This document shows positions 9,200-45,369 of a stretch of DNA of 64,000 nt, one piece after another. Under the pieces are notes generated by a model. The model was not told where the DNA came from, did not search any database, and saw nothing but the letters and a program-made list of their open reading frames with translations. The position numbers and the translations under genes were made by a program. Position 1 is the first letter of the stretch. Every line of letters starts with the position of its first letter. The stretch lies in assembly GCA_000165345.1 (NCBI GenBank), contig CM000431.1:736001-800000 (forward strand). Direction: 5' to 3'.

Positions 9200-12100
9200 A
9201 TGAACAGAAACTCGATAATATCTCAATGCAACGTTGATCCCACTGTTTTCTTCTATTATTCAGGTAATAACTTCCACAAAAAATTGGGATTATATTTTAT
9301 TGATGATTTTACCTACGAAAATATTAATAAAATTTTTGAACACACAAATGAGTCAAAACTAACTTTTACTCCAGCTATTGGTGAAATATCAGACCCAATT
9401 TTTTCCGGAGAAACATCTATTGAATATTCATCCGAATTTTTCCCAAGATTTTCCTGGAGCAAAAACGATACTTTTGGTGCATTTACAACTGGTATTTCTC
9501 GCGAAATAAAAATATTGTATTTGAACAAGGGGCAACTCCAAATTTCAGAAGAGATTCATACTCCTGATTACTTTTGTTCTTGTCTTGAACTAAATAATTA
9601 TGTAAATTTTCATTTATTGGCTTCTTCCAATATTAAATATTTCAATTCTCAAAATTTCGCTCAAGGAATTATTTCTATAATCGATTCCAACACTAAACAA
9701 AACATTGTAAATTATCATAAAGGTTCTAGCTTCGAAAGACTTAATAATATTTCCGGATATCCTAATAATGTTAAGTGGATAAACTCCAACTGCTTGGTTT
9801 CTGGCTGGAAGCTTTGTAATTATTCAAGCCAATTGCATTTTTACGACATACGAGCTAAAGATGCAATTTTTGCTACCAATATTATGACCAATTGTAATGA
9901 ACTCCTAGCAGTTAGCCAAACTGGAGGTAATTATTTACTTTCCAGTAACTTAAATAACATTATTTGTATATTTGATATAAGGTTTATGAAAAATGAACCA
10001 AGACAAAATATTATTCAAACATTAAACTGCATTTATTTTAATGATAATGAGATCAACGATATACAGTGGTTTCCAAATGGAGAACTCAATATTTCAATTT
10101 ATACTAATGATGGGATCTTTATTGCAGAGTTAAATAAAGAAATAAACTCACATATATCTTTTGAAGCATACAAGTCAGATAATCGTTTTGAAAATATCTA
10201 TTGGAATGAAAATTTAATCAAGCATTACAAGCCATTAAGTCTTAAAGAAGATTTCAGCGATACATTTTGTTGGGTTAATTATTTTGGAGGAAGTAACAAT
10301 AAACATTCATTAGTATACACAACTTCTGAGTCTGCATATCTTTTATCAAATTTAGAAATTAAAATTAATTCTTTTCCTACCTTTCGAATTTCTCCACTGG
10401 ATTCTCATTCAATAGATACGAAACATAAGCCTCAAAAAATTAATTACAGGGTTTCAAATTCTCCAAAATTGTTTGGTTACTCATGGATTCCATATAGGAT
10501 AATAAAATACTATAAAAATGATAAGAAAATTGAAGAGTACAACTGCATAGAGTTATTGAGAAGACTTGAGAACATAAATTCAACAGAAGCTAGAAATTTG
10601 GTCATTAATCAAAATGATCAGAAAAAGTTAATTGATATTGGAATTTTCCCATTAGCATTAAATAACTTAACTAATATTATAAAAATTATTAAATCTGCTT
10701 CTCATGCATTTAATTACTTATCAACTTTACCTAATCGAATTATTCATTGGAAAGATATTTTGAGGCAATTTAACAAGCAAGGCCTATTTAGTGGTGAAAA
10801 CGTGTCTGTTTTAGATAAATTAATGTTACCAGGAATCAGAGACTTAGTTTATATTTTTAAGTTGGAAGCAGGGAATAGTGATATATCTACCCAGCTGAGA
10901 TTTATTAATGTCAAGTATGAAGATTTAGAAAATAAGTCTTCTAAATGCTTGAATATGAGAGAAAATTTTCATCACATTGAAATATTTTGTTCTCCTTTTA
11001 GAGAGAAGTTAATAAATCTTTTTGGAGTATCCTCATTTATTATTGAAACGCCTATCTTTATAGACAATAATGACCCAATTCAATTAGAATCATTTTTAAT
11101 CACATTTTTTTGGAACTGCATTACACTTCAATACCAGAATTTTATTTCTCACGGTGATAAGCTATCAAATATTCTTGATAATTTTATTGATAATGAAAAT
11201 AAGCTACTCAAATCCTCTTTTTTAAAAAATATTAAGTTGTTTTTTAATTCTGCTGGGATTTTTATTTCGAATTTATATTCTTCAGAAGAACTAAATAAAA
11301 TTTCTTTAAGCAGAAAAGATATTCAGTTCTACTACTATTCAATTATTTCAACAAGCGAACATTTACTAGATGAAGATTATTACTTGCCTATTTGGAACAG
11401 CAACATTCATTTTGAATCTAGTCTTCAACTTTCAATAAGATTTATTGTTGCATTTTCCAAATTTATTAATATCCATGATCAAAACAAGCAATTTTCTTCA
11501 TATTTATTGGATGAACTATTAATTCCTTCCATGAGAATAAACTCTTATATTTATATTCCTGCTAATTTGTTACTTTTGATTGGAATTTATTATTTACCTT
11601 TGGAGGAAATTTGTAACTTGATAGAAATAATTATAAGAAAAATGGCTCAAAATGGTTTTTTAGATGGAATATCAATTTTAGGGTTTAATACATTTACTGA
11701 TGAAACATTTTTGTTAAGAAGTTTTCCTGATAACTACAACTCTGAACAATTTGAAACCTTTCTCGGGAATTTCAATTTGAACGAAAATCTTGATTCGATA
11801 TTTTTAGAGCCAGAAAATAATATAAATAAAAATTTTGGTTATAATTTGAGCTCTCAAGTATTTCTTAATTTAATTTTTCGCAAATATTTATCTCTTTCAT
11901 TTGGAGATATTCAAACAGTTGCATTAATTGGATCGTGTATTCCTAATCTCTCTGGTGGTCTCAAAAAAAATATGGAATTATTAAAGATTTGCATTGATGA
12001 ATACAAAGATTTATTGAAGAATAACTCTTTAATATATTATCTAATTTATAGCTCAAACATAATCGGCCTTTTAAAAAATGGATCTAAATCCGCAAAATTT

Positions 12101-12796
12101 ACTTATAATAATGTATCGGGCATACTTTATGAGCTTAATATCCTAAGATCGAGTTACTATAAAATGATTCATATTGACCAGGATCAATTAAAGCCACTAT
12201 TACCAACTGGGAATATATTATTTTGCTATTATTGCGAGCAGCCATTATGCCAAGCATATTTCGAGCAGAGTTGCTTTTTTGAAAAAAGCAATTCGAACAT
12301 GGATTGTAATTCAATAATTTCTCAATCATTCAATACAGACCTTTCTGAAGTTCAATTAGACAAAAAAGAAATAGTTTTTAAGAATATTTATAATAGAGAC
12401 TATCAGGTAGGATATTCGTTACGTTGGACAAGCAGTAATAAATCAAGTATAAATAGTTTAATTCAACCTGAAGCTATTCAAAGTTTGGAGTTATCATCTA
12501 TGATCTTAAACTGCCCTAATAAATATTGTAACAAACCTCTACCAAGATGCGTAATTTGTTTGACAGAAATGTCTATCAATGTGATTAGTAATTCAATCAA
12601 TGATGACGCTGCGCAAAAGGACTGTACTCAACAATGTAATTATAATAAATTGAGTAAATGGTATACTTGGTGTTTGCATTGCCACCATGGCGGATGTTTT
12701 AAACATATCAGTGAATGGTTTGAGTGTTTTGATGAATGCCCTGTACCGGAGTGCAATTGTTGGTGTAATTCAGTAGATCGTTGGCACAAATTATAA
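9200..12796 (+). CDS. WD40 beta-propeller, alpha-solenoid and C-terminal RING protein. The RING is of the SEA/GATOR2 type (WDR24/WDR59/MIOS-like). A HOPS/CORVET subunit such as Vps8, Vps11 or Vps18 is the alternative.
   Basis: The ATG at 9200 is confirmed. The N-terminal region carries WD-like strands (HFYDIRA, ICIFDIRF, IQWFPNGEL). The C-terminus reads CVIC...WCLHCHHGGCFKHISEWFECFDECPVPECNCWC. This resembles, as recalled from memory, the C-x2-C...C-x2-C-G-H-G-G-H...W...CP..C.C C-terminal fingers of WDR24/WDR59/MIOS. Total length is 1198 aa. Confidence 0.5.
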   Translation: MNRNSIISQCNVDPTVFFYYSGNNFHKKLGLYFIDDFTYENINKIFEHTNESKLTFTPAIGEISDPIFSGETSIEYSSEFFPRFSWSKNDTFGAFTTGISREIKILYLNKGQLQISEEIHTPDYFCSCLELNNYVNFHLLASSNIKYFNSQNFAQGIISIIDSNTKQNIVNYHKGSSFERLNNISGYPNNVKWINSNCLVSGWKLCNYSSQLHFYDIRAKDAIFATNIMTNCNELLAVSQTGGNYLLSSNLNNIICIFDIRFMKNEPRQNIIQTLNCIYFNDNEINDIQWFPNGELNISIYTNDGIFIAELNKEINSHISFEAYKSDNRFENIYWNENLIKHYKPLSLKEDFSDTFCWVNYFGGSNNKHSLVYTTSESAYLLSNLEIKINSFPTFRISPLDSHSIDTKHKPQKINYRVSNSPKLFGYSWIPYRIIKYYKNDKKIEEYNCIELLRRLENINSTEARNLVINQNDQKKLIDIGIFPLALNNLTNIIKIIKSASHAFNYLSTLPNRIIHWKDILRQFNKQGLFSGENVSVLDKLMLPGIRDLVYIFKLEAGNSDISTQLRFINVKYEDLENKSSKCLNMRENFHHIEIFCSPFREKLINLFGVSSFIIETPIFIDNNDPIQLESFLITFFWNCITLQYQNFISHGDKLSNILDNFIDNENKLLKSSFLKNIKLFFNSAGIFISNLYSSEELNKISLSRKDIQFYYYSIISTSEHLLDEDYYLPIWNSNIHFESSLQLSIRFIVAFSKFINIHDQNKQFSSYLLDELLIPSMRINSYIYIPANLLLLIGIYYLPLEEICNLIEIIIRKMAQNGFLDGISILGFNTFTDETFLLRSFPDNYNSEQFETFLGNFNLNENLDSIFLEPENNINKNFGYNLSSQVFLNLIFRKYLSLSFGDIQTVALIGSCIPNLSGGLKKNMELLKICIDEYKDLLKNNSLIYYLIYSSNIIGLLKNGSKSAKFTYNNVSGILYELNILRSSYYKMIHIDQDQLKPLLPTGNILFCYYCEQPLCQAYFEQSCFFEKSNSNMDCNSIISQSFNTDLSEVQLDKKEIVFKNIYNRDYQVGYSLRWTSSNKSSINSLIQPEAIQSLELSSMILNCPNKYCNKPLPRCVICLTEMSINVISNSINDDAAQKDCTQQCNYNKLSKWYTWCLHCHHGGCFKHISEWFECFDECPVPECNCWCNSVDRWHKL
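12548..12766 (+). other. C-terminal RING-like zinc finger of the 9200..12796 protein
   Basis: The Cys/His cluster is listed in the parent feature. Confidence 0.55.
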
Positions 12797-25128: not shown

Positions 25129-25773
25129 AAAAAGATAATTTAGCACTGAAAAAAAATACTTAAACTGAAAGCTAATTGTATTAATATTAATAGATTTTTA
25201 GAGCAAATAGATTAGACTAGGAATTTTGGATTACCTGCTATTAAAGAACGATATTCATCAACCAATCCAATAAGATGGAATTTCAGACTGGGGCGACAAG
25301 GAAGTCGTCATGAATCAACGCAAATTGTCAATCATCATACACTCCAATACTTACTGAAAATGCGAAGACCAAGGCTAATTGAAATTCAATACCTTAGTAG
25401 AATAATAATTTGAGCTCAGTTATTAGTTGTTTCTTCAAAAATACAATATTTCAGAAACACGGAAACCAAATACATCATTGCATTTAAAAATCGCATTTAA
25501 GTGATAAACTCCATCCGTAATAGAGGTAAAATCGATCCCTAAGCCATGGTAAACTTACGAATAAATTATAATCTTCACATTTCATTTAGGACACGGTAGT
25601 ATATAAAATTAATCTAGCTTAGCAATAATTTGATAGTTTGATAAGAGCCTCAGGACAATACATTATGCCGTCTAATTAAACTCGGCGCCCATGTCATTTT
25701 CGCCTTGAAAGAGATTCGAATGATTTGAAGCCAATTCCTTTTTTCGCAAACAACTTTTTATTAGACTGCTATT

Positions 25774-27046: not shown

Positions 27047-28747
27047 TTATATATTGCTTTCTGTTTTTCCATAGGCAATTCTTTTTAAATTGTCAGTAGT
27101 ACTCTTGACACGTTGACCCACGCCGATCACCGTGTTTTCCATATTCAAGTTTGCGTCATTACCTGATTCTGAGTCACTGGGGTATGATATAAATGGATAT
27201 GTTCTTTTTTGTAATGCTGGCGTTGTAAGACATAATTCTTGCGAACGATGAAGGAGAAGCCCTTCAGATCCAACGTCGTAATCATTTGAGGGAATAATAG
27301 TCCCTGATTGTGCAGGTTGAGAGTTTGACATTCTATTTTGTTTATGGACTATTGACAGCCTTTTAACCATATCGATTGTACCTAAAATATCAAAACTGTT
27401 GGAAGGGGTAATTGAAGTAGAAGATGACGTGCTCATAAGAGAATCAACCATGTATGCATTTATTCTATCTTTTCCCCTCAGTGTATTTGTAGCATACTTT
27501 GACCTTAGCATTTGTAGATGCTTTTTTGGGACGTTGATGCCTAAATGGTGAATAAACGGAAAGTCTCGAATTAAAATCTCTGGATGAAAATCTGCAATTT
27601 CTTCGTATACCTTATTCTGTAACAGTCTCTTTGTTGGCTCAAAGTTGTCGAAAGACCAATCAATAGAATCAGTAGTGTTGGAATCCAATGAGATTAATTC
27701 TGGTTCAATAGAGTTATTTGATTTAAACTGAATGTTATGAGCACTAGATGATTTTGGAGAGTCGTACCCTGAGTTAATATTAATTCCATTGAAATATGGA
27801 TGCGATAGAGCCTCTTCAGCTGTTATTCGCTTTTTTGGATTAAAGCTTAGCATTTTTTCAATAAGGTCAATAGCTTCAGGGCAATTAAATCCAGGGAATA
27901 AAGTTGAAATATGCCTACCCTTATAGTTTGGAAGCGTGTCTAAGTACTTTCTCGCATTCTCGGTACTCCCCTTGTAAGGAAGCCAGGAATCTAAGTCATC
28001 TCTGCTTGGGGTACCCAAACAAGAAATAATAGCTTTAAGTTGATCTAGATGGTCATGACCAGCAAACAAAGCACTCCTTTTAATTAATTCAGCAAAAATA
28101 CAGCCTGCACTCCATATATCCACAGCTTTATCGTATCTATTTACACACAAAATTATTTCGGGTGCCCTGTACCATCTCGTAACTACATAATCTGTTAATT
28201 CGTCCTTGCTTTTATCAATATCACAGACATTTCCTCTTGCTAAGCCAAAATCACAAATCTTTAAATCACATGATAAGTTTACAAGGATATTTGATGGCTT
28301 CAGATCACGGTGTATAATATTTACCTTATGTAGGTAAGATAATCCTCTCAAAATTTGATACATAAAATATTGTATATGCTCATTTGTCAGTGTCTGTTTA
28401 CTATATATCACACGGTGCAAATCTGTCTCCATTAACTGAGTAACAATATATATATCTTCAAAATTCGGAGAGTCTGGAGGAAGAAGATCAATAATACCCA
28501 AAATGTTTTCGTGTTGAAGCTGCCTTAAAAGCTTAATTTCTCTTAGAATTCTCTTTGCATCTATTAAGTCCTGAAATGCATCAAATATCTTCTTTACTGC
28601 AATATAAGATCCTCGAGATTTATCGTAAAATGAAACTACACATCCATAGGCACCACTTCCAACTTTTTTAATAAACTTGTAATGCTCGGGAACTGTGTAC
28701 GTGCTTCCATCTTCTACATTTACAGTAATATTTTTTGTGATTTTCAT
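27047..28747 (-). CDS. Mitogen-activated protein kinase (ERK-like, TDY activation motif)
   Basis: The track start is TTG and the first in-frame ATG is 28747. Motifs seen: GSGAYGCV, HRDLKPSNILVN, DFGLAR, TDYVVTRWYRAPEI. A C-terminal low-complexity tail follows. Confidence 0.85.
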   Translation of the reverse strand: MKITKNITVNVEDGSTYTVPEHYKFIKKVGSGAYGCVVSFYDKSRGSYIAVKKIFDAFQDLIDAKRILREIKLLRQLQHENILGIIDLLPPDSPNFEDIYIVTQLMETDLHRVIYSKQTLTNEHIQYFMYQILRGLSYLHKVNIIHRDLKPSNILVNLSCDLKICDFGLARGNVCDIDKSKDELTDYVVTRWYRAPEIILCVNRYDKAVDIWSAGCIFAELIKRSALFAGHDHLDQLKAIISCLGTPSRDDLDSWLPYKGSTENARKYLDTLPNYKGRHISTLFPGFNCPEAIDLIEKMLSFNPKKRITAEEALSHPYFNGININSGYDSPKSSSAHNIQFKSNNSIEPELISLDSNTTDSIDWSFDNFEPTKRLLQNKVYEEIADFHPEILIRDFPFIHHLGINVPKKHLQMLRSKYATNTLRGKDRINAYMVDSLMSTSSSTSITPSNSFDILGTIDMVKRLSIVHKQNRMSNSQPAQSGTIIPSNDYDVGSEGLLLHRSQELCLTTPALQKRTYPFISYPSDSESGNDANLNMENTVIGVGQRVKSTTDNLKRIAYGKTESNI

Positions 28748-28829
28748 TATTTCATAGATTATCAAAATAATCTACATTACGAATTTATAATCTTACGGCC
28801 TTTTAGTGGTACATTTCAATATTAATAAT

Positions 28830-28850
28830 CCCACATGTTAAACATGTGGG
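28830..28850. promoter_or_regulatory. Perfect 21-bp palindrome CCCACATGTT-A-AACATGTGGG in the divergent MAPK/PKA intergenic region
   Basis: Read directly from the sequence: 10-bp arms that are exact reverse complements around a single central A. It lies ~85-100 bp upstream of the MAPK ATG at 28747. Confidence 0.5.
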
Positions 28851-29098
28851 CATTTTACCGCCTTAGCTACGGCACGACGTTCTTTGAGTGGAAATTATGA
28901 AGTTACAAAAAATTTACAACCAAATATTCATTGAAAAATTTATTAAAGGAGTTGAAAGTGTGTCGCCAATTACAAGTTAATAAAATGAATTTGAATGGTA
29001 AAAATTTAATTGATACATATTTTTAGCGAATAAGCAATAGTATATAGAGCTTCTAGATTTAATTTTTTTGTATTGCAATTACAAATTTGAATAATCAT

Positions 29099-29127
29099 GG
29101 CGCCCTAAGCGCCTATGTTCATGCATG
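29099..29127. promoter_or_regulatory. GC-rich element GGCGCCCTAAGCGCC (inverted GGCGC arms) followed by the palindromic CATGCATG
   Basis: Read directly. It lies ~200 bp upstream of the PKA ATG, in a stretch that is GC-richer than its surroundings. Confidence 0.45.
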
Positions 29128-29321
29128 ACAGAAAAATCAGCGAGTGTAGACGGAGTGTGCAAAGCGAATTAATGTCTTAGTCTATAGTGTTGTATCTAAA
29201 GCCGTGCTCTCGCTCATATTTTTATAGCTATACACATACTTCGGTCCCAGACAATAATTATATTATATTTTTTGCTTAGTACCGTAGGGGACTTAATTTG
29301 GTATTATTCAAATTATTACGA

Positions 29322-30500
29322 ATGGATGGAATTTGGAAAAGACTTGTTTCTGGAGGGAAGAATCACTCTTCAAAAGAGGGCGGCAATAGTCAGAAAAATG
29401 CAGTTGCTGCTAACAATCGGACATGTGAAAATGGCCGAAGTTTAGATTTTAATACCAATAATAAGTCCCACAATAATCCAAATAATGACACCCGTTATCC
29501 TGCTACTTCAAACATGAACAAGCATGACACGGATATATCAGGGAATAACCAGAAAAAATATAGCATCGACGATTTTCAGCTTATTAGAACATTAGGAACA
29601 GGCTCGTTCGGAAGAGTTTTCTTATCTAAGCACAAGGAAGATAATAGCATTTATGCAATAAAAAGACTTAAAAAGAGTGTGGTTATTCGGCAAAAGCAGG
29701 TGGACCATATTACAAATGAAAAAGCGATTCTTTCAAGAATTAAACATCCATTTTTAGTTAGAATGTTTGGAACATTTAAAGATGACCGATATTTATACAT
29801 TATGATGGAATTTGTTATAGGGGGAGAGTTTTTCACATACCTAAGAAGGTGTAGGCACTTTGACAATGAAACTTCGAGGTTTTATGCTGCGCAAGTCGTG
29901 TTAATGTTTGAATATTTGCACGGAAAAAACATTATATATAGAGATCTTAAACCAGAAAATATTCTAATTGACAAAGATGGGTATTTGAAGCTAACTGATT
30001 TTGGATTTGCAAAGGCAATCGAATATAGGACGTTTACACTTTGTGGGACGCCTGAATATATCGCTCCAGAAGTTCTTTTAAACAAGGGCCATGGAAAGCC
30101 GGTTGATTGGTGGACGCTGGGCATATTGATATATGAAATGGTTGTAGGCTTTCCCCCTTTTTATGATGATGAACCTATGGGTATCTATCAAAAAATTCTA
30201 GCGGGTAAGATTTTTTTCCCTAAGTATTTTGACAAAAATTGTAAAAGTTTGGTAAAAAGACTACTTACTCCGGATTTAACAAAAAGATATGGTAACCTCA
30301 AAGGTGGTGTTAGTGATATAAAACTACACAAGTGGTTTTATAATTATGACTTTAATTCTTTGATATCAAGGAAAGTTGACCCCCCGTATATTCCTAAGGT
30401 CAACTCGTATGATGATTCATCGAATTTTGAAGAATATCCAGATAGCCATGAACAACCTACTACTGTTACAGGTAATGCTGATCCATTCGTTGACTGGTAG
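29322..30500 (+). CDS. cAMP-dependent protein kinase catalytic subunit-like (AGC kinase)
   Basis: The track start at 29298 is TTG and the ATG is at 29322. Motifs seen: GTGSFGRV, AIKRLKK, YRDLKPENILID, DFGFAK, GTPEYIAPE. There is an N-terminal extension of ~100 aa before the glycine loop. Confidence 0.8.
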   Translation: MDGIWKRLVSGGKNHSSKEGGNSQKNAVAANNRTCENGRSLDFNTNNKSHNNPNNDTRYPATSNMNKHDTDISGNNQKKYSIDDFQLIRTLGTGSFGRVFLSKHKEDNSIYAIKRLKKSVVIRQKQVDHITNEKAILSRIKHPFLVRMFGTFKDDRYLYIMMEFVIGGEFFTYLRRCRHFDNETSRFYAAQVVLMFEYLHGKNIIYRDLKPENILIDKDGYLKLTDFGFAKAIEYRTFTLCGTPEYIAPEVLLNKGHGKPVDWWTLGILIYEMVVGFPPFYDDEPMGIYQKILAGKIFFPKYFDKNCKSLVKRLLTPDLTKRYGNLKGGVSDIKLHKWFYNYDFNSLISRKVDPPYIPKVNSYDDSSNFEEYPDSHEQPTTVTGNADPFVDW

Positions 30501-43132: not shown

Positions 43133-45037
43133 TTATTCATTTATAAAAGATTCTGTATATTTTTTTTGTCGTTTAATCGAGAAATCCTCAGCTAATTCTT
43201 GTATTTTCTTTAATAGTAAAGCTTCGCTATTTAATGTTTCATTGTACTCTAACTTAATTTCTTTTAACTTGTTTAGTGAATCTGCCATAATAATAAATAT
43301 TTTTGATTCAAGTTCCTTAAATAACTCTATAATGCACATTGATTCACCTACTTTGCTTATTTCCAGGGAGTTAATTTCATCATTAGATTGCGTCGAAACA
43401 AAGCTAGCTCTGTTTAATTGCTTATCCGAGTAATTTATTTCACTTTGCTGAAATAGTGAATTGTTCTCTTTTTCTGAAAAGGAGTTATTTTCAATAATAG
43501 TTTCGTTAACTTTTTTACTTGATATTTGACTTGAAAATTCACTTAAGGAATTAATTACATCATATATATTATTATTTATGTGATGAATCAAGTTCAGACC
43601 ATAGTTATTCTCATCTTGAAAAATTTTCTTCTCTTCAACAGTAACTAGTCCGGAAATTATAGTTTGTGAAGAAGATTCAATCTGCGATTTTTTTTTAGAT
43701 TTAACCTTCTGATCAAAAGAGTTGATCCCGATATTACAGTTGCAAGTACATGACAGATCATTTTCTTCATTATCATTTAGTAATTGATTAGATATTTTAA
43801 CCTTGATGTTTTTTGCTCTGTTAGCATATTTCAACGTGTTATGAGATTCTTCAAATGCTTTGGATGATGGGGAAATATTTGCAATCATTACAACAAAGCA
43901 TTTTTCACCTTCTAAACTATTCTTTAATATATGAGTCAATTTTGAGTCTCTATATTTAACATGGTATCTATTATCATTATTCTGGTTAAGAATGGACTGC
44001 CCATCAATGCTCGAACTTGATAAAGCCAAAGAATTAATACAGTTAGCTAGAGCTAGTAGTGAACGATTAATATGCGCACCTTCAGTTAATCTAATTCCCC
44101 TGTTTTGCGTTGCGCTTGCTCTTTCAGAGCCAGCTAGATCAATAAACGAAATCTTGCACCAAAGTTGAGGATTTGTTGAGTTGTTTATTGAGGGCTTGTA
44201 CAGTTTTTCACTAGGAAAATGATCATTTCTATAGTTATTGCTTCTAATGAATTTATGTGGATTGTTATTTGCAGATATATTAAATAACTTTTTTCTTTCT
44301 AAAAATATAGATAGTTGGAAAATTGCATGGCTTCTTGAAGACACATTATTTGCGACAGTTTGTTCAATCTTTCGGTATTTATTTCCGAAATTTAAAGCTT
44401 GAATTCCCTCCTTACTGTTTTCAATTAGTAGTTGAGTCAGGTTGCTAATTTGTATATTTGATTGATCTTCAAGTATTTCACAAGAATATTGACAATTTGA
44501 AGAGTTATTGGATGGATTCAGCAAATCTCTAATTGTTTCATTGTAAATTTCCATGTATGATGCAGTTACAAAGAAATTTGAGTTAGGCTTTAATTCATTT
44601 GAGCTATTATTTTCACTACTGCTCATATCGGAGTTATTATCTTTAACAAACCTTTCATCGCTGAAAAGATATTCAAATGTTTCATTGATCCCTCTAATTA
44701 CTATCCCAGGATTTTTCTCGTTTCCAATAATGGTATATGTTTTACCAGTACCAGTTGCACCATAAACAAATACAGTTAAATTAATTCCATTTGATATTGC
44801 ATTTTTAAGAAAATTACATGTTGATATATTGTAAACAGTCTCCTGATCAGCATTAGGTGGGAATATATGATCAAATGTGTACTCATAATATCTAGTTTGT
44901 TGTGAAAGCAAGTATGTGTTTTTTTTTCCAGGTTTAGATATTATAACCTTTCTCTGGCCCCTTATATCTACAATATCTTCATCATCGCTCCCATCAGCAT
45001 TAGGTCGTACCCTAAGAACAACTCGAACTCTTTCCAT
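43133..45037 (-). CDS. Kinesin-like motor protein (N-terminal motor domain)
   Basis: P-loop FVYGATGTGKTYT, switch I SSRSHAIFQL and switch II DLAGSE are all present. The motor occupies aa 1-~330 and is followed by a low-complexity, coiled region. The ATG is confirmed. Confidence 0.85.
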   Translation of the reverse strand: MERVRVVLRVRPNADGSDDEDIVDIRGQRKVIISKPGKKNTYLLSQQTRYYEYTFDHIFPPNADQETVYNISTCNFLKNAISNGINLTVFVYGATGTGKTYTIIGNEKNPGIVIRGINETFEYLFSDERFVKDNNSDMSSSENNSSNELKPNSNFFVTASYMEIYNETIRDLLNPSNNSSNCQYSCEILEDQSNIQISNLTQLLIENSKEGIQALNFGNKYRKIEQTVANNVSSRSHAIFQLSIFLERKKLFNISANNNPHKFIRSNNYRNDHFPSEKLYKPSINNSTNPQLWCKISFIDLAGSERASATQNRGIRLTEGAHINRSLLALANCINSLALSSSSIDGQSILNQNNDNRYHVKYRDSKLTHILKNSLEGEKCFVVMIANISPSSKAFEESHNTLKYANRAKNIKVKISNQLLNDNEENDLSCTCNCNIGINSFDQKVKSKKKSQIESSSQTIISGLVTVEEKKIFQDENNYGLNLIHHINNNIYDVINSLSEFSSQISSKKVNETIIENNSFSEKENNSLFQQSEINYSDKQLNRASFVSTQSNDEINSLEISKVGESMCIIELFKELESKIFIIMADSLNKLKEIKLEYNETLNSEALLLKKIQELAEDFSIKRQKKYTESFINE

Positions 45038-45082
45038 AATGTACTGGTTCCATAAATTATTTTAAAAATTTTTTTTCAATAA

Positions 45083-45109
45083 CGGCACGTCACCTCCCCA
45101 CATGCGGGC
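45083..45109. promoter_or_regulatory. GC-rich island CGGCACGTCACCTCCCCACATGCGGGC, 45-70 bp upstream of the kinesin ATG. A GCATGC core follows at 45137-45142.
   Basis: Read directly. It stands out against ~75% AT flanks. Confidence 0.35.
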
Positions 45110-45369
45110 TTTAAAACCAGTTATTCTATACATATTGCATGCCAAGCTTGCTACATGTATTACATGAAATGTATATATTTCGTTACAAAATTCGCAATTT
45201 TAGTAGATCAATATATTAGCAAAATATAAACTTCTCAATTTTTAAATCAGCTCGAAAAAGCATTCTATTAAAGACAAATATTTGGAGAAAGGCCTAGTTA
45301 CATAGGTAATATTAAAGCTAGAAAATCTATATTCAATAACTTAGAAATTATTTTTGCAAAATATTGCCT

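Follow-up and report, generated by a model that had tools for sequence, protein, structure and literature searches.

A perfect palindrome that lies between two protein kinase genes transcribed away from each other raises the question of whether such an element controls both genes, one of them, or neither through the DNA at all. The interval that holds it is located on chromosome 3 of Cryptosporidium parvum, within a 64-kb stretch of DNA that was analyzed in full (the window). The divergent arrangement described in the initial annotation is borne out by the open reading frames, which are separated by 574 bp and have their start codons at position 28747 on the minus strand (MAPK) and position 29322 on the plus strand (PKA). 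The MAPK protein shares 96% identity with a C. meleagridis cluster that includes the MAPK of C. parvum Iowa II, and a kinesin encoded further along the window (43133-45037) matches the C. parvum Iowa II protein of locus 3g3090 with 100% identity. Based on the adjacency of the two identifiers, the protein families, and the locus number of the kinesin, cgd3_3030 and cgd3_3040 were assigned to the two kinase genes. The former has been named MAPKL1 and is the orthologue of a Toxoplasma kinase that controls centrosome duplication and budding (PMC9560070, PMC3227725). The latter encodes the single PKA catalytic subunit (PMC3227725, PMC10865986). Gene regulation in Cryptosporidium is poorly understood, few single promoters have been dissected, and the interval between these genes offers a compact, conservation-backed test case. 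The features discussed below are collected in Table 1.

Table 1 Features of the MAPKL1/PKA intergenic region and of the related kinesin promoter, in window coordinates.
Feature	Position	Strand	Description
MAPKL1 gene (cgd3_3030)	27047-28747	minus	ORF of 566 aa; TDY activation loop; Pfam Pkinase
Divergent intergenic region MAPKL1/PKA	28748-29321		574 bp; two GC-rich conserved modules and an unconserved stretch (28896-29095)
Palindrome TCCCACATGTT-A-AACATGTGGGCA	28829-28851		23 bp; arms 28830-28839 and 28841-28850; invariant cores CCCACAT and ATGTGGG
E2F-like site, MAPKL1 side	28853-28864	minus	MAPK sense AAGGCGGTAAAA; AAGGCGGGAAAA in C. ubiquitum, C. canis and the Logan species
ACGT-core element ACGGCACGACGTT	28869-28881	minus	MAPK sense AACGTCGTGCCGT
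GAGTGGAA	28886-28893		Kept as AGTGGAA in 8 of 10 species; corresponds to no known motif
E2F-like TGGCGCC, PKA side	29098-29104		First half of GGCGCCCTAAGCGCC (29099-29113)
CATGCATG	29120-29127		AP2_1-like TGCAT core; kept in 5 of 9 aligned species
TAGACGGAGTGTGCA	29147-29161		GTGTGCA at 29155-29161
PKA catalytic subunit gene (cgd3_3040)	29322-30500	plus	ORF of 392 aa; Pfam Pkinase
Kinesin gene (cgd3_3090)	43133-45037	minus	Annotated as kinesin-8 in C. felis
Second composite site ACGGCACGTCACCTCCCCACATGCGGGC	45082-45109	minus	Gene sense GCCCGCATGTGGGGAGGTGACGTGCCGT; 45-70 nt upstream of the kinesin ATG

The palindrome itself, CCCACATGTTAAACATGTGGG, had been reported as a perfect 21-bp repeat at 28830-28850, and two 10-nt arms around one central base were indeed found there. 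On its own strand, each arm has the G-box-like sequence CATGTGGG, and the C. parvum arms end variously in C or A (CATGTGGGC/A). The length of the repeat had been considered too great to be expected by chance in 64 kb. This view does not hold: in 200 dinucleotide-preserving shuffles of the window, palindromes with arms of at least 10 nt and a spacer of 0-1 nt averaged 0.64 per window, and 47% of the shuffles contained at least one. It is the composition alone that is unusual, as arms with at least five G or C residues arose in 1 of 200 shuffles. A second 10+1+10 palindrome, TTGCTTTTTTGAAAAAAGCAA, is present at 12271-12291 inside the open reading frame at 9200-12796; it is AT-rich and can be accounted for by chance.

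Conservation in related species was a point on which the initial annotation had let the standing of the site depend. For this comparison, nine orthologous loci were set beside that of C. parvum, namely those of C. meleagridis, C. ubiquitum, a species represented by a Logan assembly, C. canis, C. felis, C. xiaoi, C. ryanae, C. serpentis, and C. muris. C. serpentis and C. muris are gastric species and the remaining eight are intestinal. Because its gap is 96% identical to that of C. serpentis, C. muris adds little depth, apart from a spacer inversion described below. The Logan sequence is a 92-kb Cryptosporidium contig (SRR31860986) with a MAPK that is 84% identical to that of C. parvum and promoter sequences nearest to those of C. 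canis. All ten species share the gene order CRM1, hypothetical gene, PKA, gap, MAPK, eIF2B. In all ten, the arm cores CCCACAT and ATGTGGG are invariant, the gastric C. serpentis and C. muris included, and the only 7-mers common to at least nine of the ten gaps are TCCCACAT, ATGTGGG, CCGCCTT, and GTGTGCA. Judged from this comparison, the palindrome element is under strong purifying selection.

The palindrome does not stand alone, as it forms part of a conserved block of about 55-65 nt (28829-28895), in which an E2F-like site (CCGCC) and an ACGT-core element are also found. Read in the MAPK sense, the block contains, in this order, TTCCACT, AACGTCGTGCCGT, AAGGCGG(G/T)AAAA, and the palindrome, followed by 67-92 nt to the ATG in each of the ten species. 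The mean identity of the block is 0.79-0.85, which is the level of the kinase domain, compared to 0.5-0.6 for other intergenic DNA in the alignment. Between 28829 and 28881, 31 of 53 columns are invariant in the nine-species alignment, relative to approximately 7% in the rest of the gap. The CCGCCT of the MAPK-side E2F-like site is invariant in this alignment; three species carry the full GGCGGGAAAA exactly, where C. parvum reads GGCGGTAAAA. The ACGT-core element contains GGCACGACGTT, which is identical in the eight intestinal species and is replaced by ACGACATGACGTT in the gastric species. Since the eIF2B and hypothetical-gene promoters in the same syntenic 10 kb show no comparable deep conservation, the constraint on the MAPKL1 block exceeds the usual promoter level. 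No second copy of the block was found in the 64-kb window, either with up to three mismatches or with an nhmmer profile of the ten species; its sub-motifs alone recur. A coding reading of the block was rejected, as the spacer lengths differ by non-multiples of three across the aligned species.

Two arguments bear on whether the palindrome serves both kinases, as the initial annotation had proposed: the distances to the two genes and the character of the DNA between the conserved parts. The palindrome tracks the ATG of the MAPK gene, whereas the GTGTGCA element on the other side, which is invariant in all ten species, tracks the ATG of the PKA gene at 155-175 nt. The distance from the palindrome to GTGTGCA is 297-336 nt in the intestinal species and 572 nt in the gastric species, and a difference of this size tells against an element common to both genes. 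The GC content is 46% in the palindrome block (28829-28895) and 51% in the PKA-side segment 29096-29165, compared to 30% for the 64-kb window, and the latter segment is in the top percentile of 70-nt windows by GC. In contrast, the 200 nt between the two modules (28896-29095) are AT-rich (21.5% GC) and unconserved. The retained per-gene distances, this unconserved AT-rich middle, and the presence of GGCGCC and CATGCATG in only five of nine aligned species therefore indicate two gene-proximal modules. A single bidirectional control element common to MAPKL1 and PKA would fit the divergent orientation of the genes and their close spacing, and it draws further support from the gastric species, in which C. 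serpentis and C. muris each carry a 13-nt ACGT-core sequence, AAACGTCATGTCG, twice and mirrored, with one copy facing each gene. However, each anchored element keeps to its own gene and each side has a separate E2F-like site, and we consider a common element improbable. The two AAACGTCATGTCG copies, at gastric intergenic positions 136-148 and 597-609, constitute a perfect inverted repeat approximately 450 nt apart, and in these species the two genes may share a factor.

In the PKA-proximal module, GGCGCCCTAAGCGCC (29099-29113) and CATGCATG (29120-29127) lie in the GC-richer segment, as the initial annotation had noted. GGCGCC is kept in five of nine aligned species and GGCGC in eight of nine, and the second arm of GGCGC..GCGCC is conserved in C. 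parvum and C. meleagridis only. Both GGCGCC and CATGCATG are kept in some intestinal species only. Measured against the E2F consensus, TGGCGCCC at 29098 matches at seven of eight positions in C. parvum and at eight of eight in C. meleagridis, C. canis, and C. felis. The E2F-like site of this side has been lost in C. ubiquitum, in the C. ryanae/C. xiaoi lineage, and in the gastric lineage. The invariant PKA-side element is instead the GCACAC site: GTGTGCA is the reverse complement of TGCACAC and includes the AP2_2 motif GCACAC, and it was not among the sites that had been flagged earlier.

To place these elements among known regulatory sequences, they were compared with the motif families reported for Cryptosporidium. 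Oberstaller et al. [quoted passage not shown] The G-box G[T/C]GGGG is bound in vitro, in protein-binding microarrays, by the ApiAP2 domains of cgd8_810, cgd2_2990, and cgd1_3520 (PMC3734150, PMC4117751). The E2F/DP consensus has been given as TGGCGCCA and TTTGGCGGGAA (PMC3734150; bioRxiv 10.1101/2025.01.17.633476) and, in an alternative form, as [A/T][C/G]GCGC[G/C][A/T] (PMC12246861). The AP2_1 family, TGCATGCA, has a TGCAT core (PMC3734150, PMC4117751), and the AP2_2 motif is GCACAC (2025 review, PMC12246861, Table 3). On the PKA side, TGGCGCC, TGCATG, TAGACG, and GTGTGCA each fall within a listed family. Of the elements singled out by the initial annotation, GGCGCC matches the known E2F family and CATGCATG resembles the AP2_1 (TGCAT) family, with the difference that CATGCATG has the TGCAT core without the full TGCATGCA and is retained in five of nine aligned species only. 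Like the AP2_2 motif, the reverse complement of GTGTGCA carries GCACAC, and it lies upstream of the PKA gene.

Like E2F/DP sites, the window contains TGGCGCC at 29098 and GGCGG(G/T)AAAA at 28853-28864 on the minus strand, although each C. parvum copy has one mismatch to the consensus. The core of the MAPK-side site agrees with Motif 4. These sites are present once per gene and proximally, as expected from open-chromatin peaks at 5' ends. In an open-chromatin study of Cryptosporidium, E2F was the dominant motif in open chromatin, and AP2 motifs were absent from sporozoite open chromatin. Given this dominance of E2F, a divergent promoter with E2F sites is ordinary in this genome.

The palindrome arms bear an imperfect resemblance to the G-box. 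The C. parvum arms ATGTGGGC and ATGTGGGA match Motif 2 at seven of eight positions and the G-box core at five of six, and, like the G-box-like motif, the palindrome sits shortly upstream of a gene in all ten species. In contrast to the core GTGGGG, the arms end in GTGGGC or GTGGGA and thus lack the fourth G, and their invariant part reaches CAT on the 5' side. The arms also include Motif 7, ACATGY. As the invariant stretch goes past the G-box core and takes in ACAT/ATGT, the binder may not be a known G-box ApiAP2 protein. The arrangement as an inverted pair with a spacer of 5-8 nt is absent from PMC3734150 and PMC4117751.

How the two arms are arranged provides a further clue to how they may be read. 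The spacer between the invariant 7-nt arms is 6, 7, 8, or 10 nt long, and its sequence also varies. In two instances, this spacer has been inverted as a unit: GTAAATAAAC in C. serpentis corresponds to GTTTATTTAC in C. muris as its exact reverse complement, within gaps that are 96% identical, and the same relation holds between GTTCAGGC in C. canis and the Logan species and GCCTGAAC in C. ryanae. The spacer undergoes flip-flop inversion driven by the inverted repeat that surrounds it. Because the arms are fixed while the spacer varies and flips, selection acts on the arms rather than on the spacer, a pattern that, at the level of the alignment, fits two sequence-specific half-sites. Similar to the palindromes of dimeric transcription factors, the element has two identical half-sites in inverted orientation, but the 6-10 nt between its invariant 7-mers differ from the fixed half-site spacing of such palindromes. 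The proposal in the initial annotation of a dimeric transcription-factor site thus survives in part. The arms resemble the G-box family bound by ApiAP2 proteins, and this resemblance in sequence would be compatible with an AP2-type reader; a rigid dimer, in contrast, is at odds with the variable spacing and the two spacer inversions.

These inversions also bring into consideration a role for DNA structure, in which cruciform or hairpin extrusion would turn the palindrome into a hotspot of recombination or replication, or into a boundary that excludes nucleosomes and separates the two promoters, with the arms kept alike by correction within the palindrome. On at least two occasions, the spacer has turned into its exact reverse complement, which is the signature of hairpin-mediated small inversions, as known from plastid non-coding DNA (Kelchner and Wendel 1996, reviewed in PMC12371153). 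In both settings, a short inverted repeat is accompanied by a spacer that occurs as its exact reverse complement in relatives; the present case differs in that the DNA is a nuclear promoter of a protist and the arms themselves are under sequence-specific selection. The inversions therefore indicate that the arms pair at the DNA level at least occasionally. Self-correction would equalize the arms within a species, but it leaves their identity across ten species unexplained, and the adjoining non-palindromic sub-blocks are equally conserved. Moreover, at 7-10 bp the arms are short for a stable cruciform. We give a function that acts through DNA structure very little credence.

If the palindrome were transcribed, it could instead act as RNA, that is, as a stem-loop in the MAPKL1 5' UTR that is read by a sequence-specific RNA-binding protein and controls translation or stability, with the E2F-like and ACGT sites as the promoter. 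A stable stem-loop with an 8-9-bp stem is predicted in all ten species (-9.5 to -14.6 kcal/mol), and the combination of a fixed stem with a freely varying loop is as seen in protein-bound RNA hairpins. The position of the repeat, 67-92 nt from the ATG and downstream of the E2F-like site in gene orientation, would suit this role, as would a degree of conservation above that of neighboring promoters. No TSS or UTR coordinates for cgd3_3030 were found in the literature. The structure, however, draws no support from compensatory changes: RNAalifold, run on both strands of nine orthologues, returned the invariant hairpin only, with compensatory changes in 0 of 11 and 0 of 16 pairs; as the stem itself never varies, this result speaks neither for nor against the fold. 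The sole non-canonical inner pair is a G-U, which falls on one strand in C. xiaoi and on the other in C. felis, and thus neither strand is favored. In addition, each arm would add an upstream AUG, and upstream ORFs are a feature of which a review describes none in Cryptosporidium (PMC12246861). The stem-loop has no Rfam match, and the same arm is found at the kinesin promoter, as CCCGCATGTGGGG, without a hairpin. An RNA element in the 5' UTR is on these grounds unlikely, albeit the most serious of the competing explanations for the repeat.

The conserved block could also be a small, unannotated non-coding RNA gene between the kinase genes. The block is GC-rich, and the one further stretch of intergenic DNA with deep conservation in the syntenic 10 kb (25411-25483) resembles a C/D-box snoRNA, so deep intergenic conservation at this locus can mark RNA genes. 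Against this explanation, Rfam searches gave nothing relevant in 28000-30000 at E values up to 10 or in the whole window at the gathering score, and a tRNA search found none. The C/D and H/ACA boxes are absent from the block sequence, covariation is lacking, and the conserved pieces are short, split by spacers of variable length, and match DNA motif families. An RNA gene at this position is thus very unlikely.

Further evidence on how the arms may be read comes from a second site in the window. ACGGCACG occurs twice in the 64 kb, in each case adjoining CCCACATG. Outside the conserved block, each of these sequences is found once in intergenic DNA, and the two are found together, at 45082-45109, upstream of the kinesin gene, 16 kb from the MAPKL1 block. 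An initial test of co-occurrence that used all 8-mers of the block was positive in 289 of 300 shuffles and was uninformative because AT-rich 8-mers are common. It was redone with the conserved cores only, and co-occurrence was then seen in 1 of 500 shuffles, in a test that was devised post hoc, after the data had been seen. In the kinesin promoter, CCGC[A/G]TGTGGGG is invariant in the four species C. parvum, C. ubiquitum, C. felis, and C. ryanae, and the copy CATGTGGGG is an exact match to Motif 2, unlike the palindrome arms. The kinesin copy of the arm is collapsed to CCCGCATGTGGGG and cannot form a long hairpin, which favors a reading as double-stranded DNA. It is plausible that MAPKL1 and the kinesin are both cell-division genes, and a link of the composite site to division would follow from that assignment. 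Within the same promoter (45082-45160), TACATGTA and CATGCAAT are almost invariant in these four species, and ACGT[G/A]CCGTT is retained by C. parvum and by C. ryanae.

On balance, we lean towards the view that the palindrome forms the centre of a promoter module close to MAPKL1 (28829-28895, about 55-65 bp) that would act as double-stranded DNA, a view that rests on sequence comparison. Weighing against it are the departure of the arms from the GTGGGG of the G-box, the absence of AP2 motifs from sporozoite open chromatin, and a constraint above the usual promoter level. In this model, the two inverted G-box-like CATGTGGG copies would probably be bound independently, or by loosely coupled ApiAP2 proteins, for which the G-box binders cgd8_810, cgd2_2990, and cgd1_3520 are candidates. 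The E2F-like GGCGG(G/T)AAAA site and the ACGT-core AACGTCGTGCCGT would act alongside the arms, and together these sites may set MAPKL1 transcription, probably within a cell-division programme. The PKA gene would have its own proximal module (29096-29161), with the E2F-like TGGCGCC, TGCAT, TAGACG, and the invariant GCACAC. The element thus has the look of a promoter module that belongs to one kinase gene and is ordinary in kind, if unusually well preserved, and not of a two-kinase switch. The general picture is unchanged, as each component has a counterpart among the motif families previously described for C. parvum. We think it rather improbable that the locus holds something beyond these families, which could take one of two forms. 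Either the inverted CATGTGGG pair and ACGT(CG)TGCCGT would be an undescribed composite cis-element that marks a genus-wide cell-division regulon (MAPKL1, the kinesin, and others), with a reader that tolerates any spacer and orientation or recognizes an extruded hairpin, or the stem-loop would be a conserved control element of the MAPKL1 5' UTR. The gap could serve for testing a possible cooperation of G-box ApiAP2 proteins with E2F/DP and could assist in delimiting a cell-division regulon.

Finally, two smaller features of the locus were observed. A two-codon upstream ORF, ATG AAA TAA (MAPK sense, 28748-28760), overlaps the MAPKL1 start region (CTATGAAATAATGAAAATC) and would be relevant only with a TSS upstream of it. 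The snoRNA-like block at 25411-25483, on the minus strand, has the top non-coding conservation in the syntenic 10 kb (identity of 0.92) and the arrangement AATGATGT-ATTTGGTTTCCGTGTTT-CTGA...TGAAGA...CTGA. With sub-threshold Rfam matches to SNORD63 (28.9 bits, E = 0.0011) and snoU18 (28.6 bits), this block, which lies between eIF2B and the gene that follows, probably represents a U18-type snoRNA that has escaped annotation.
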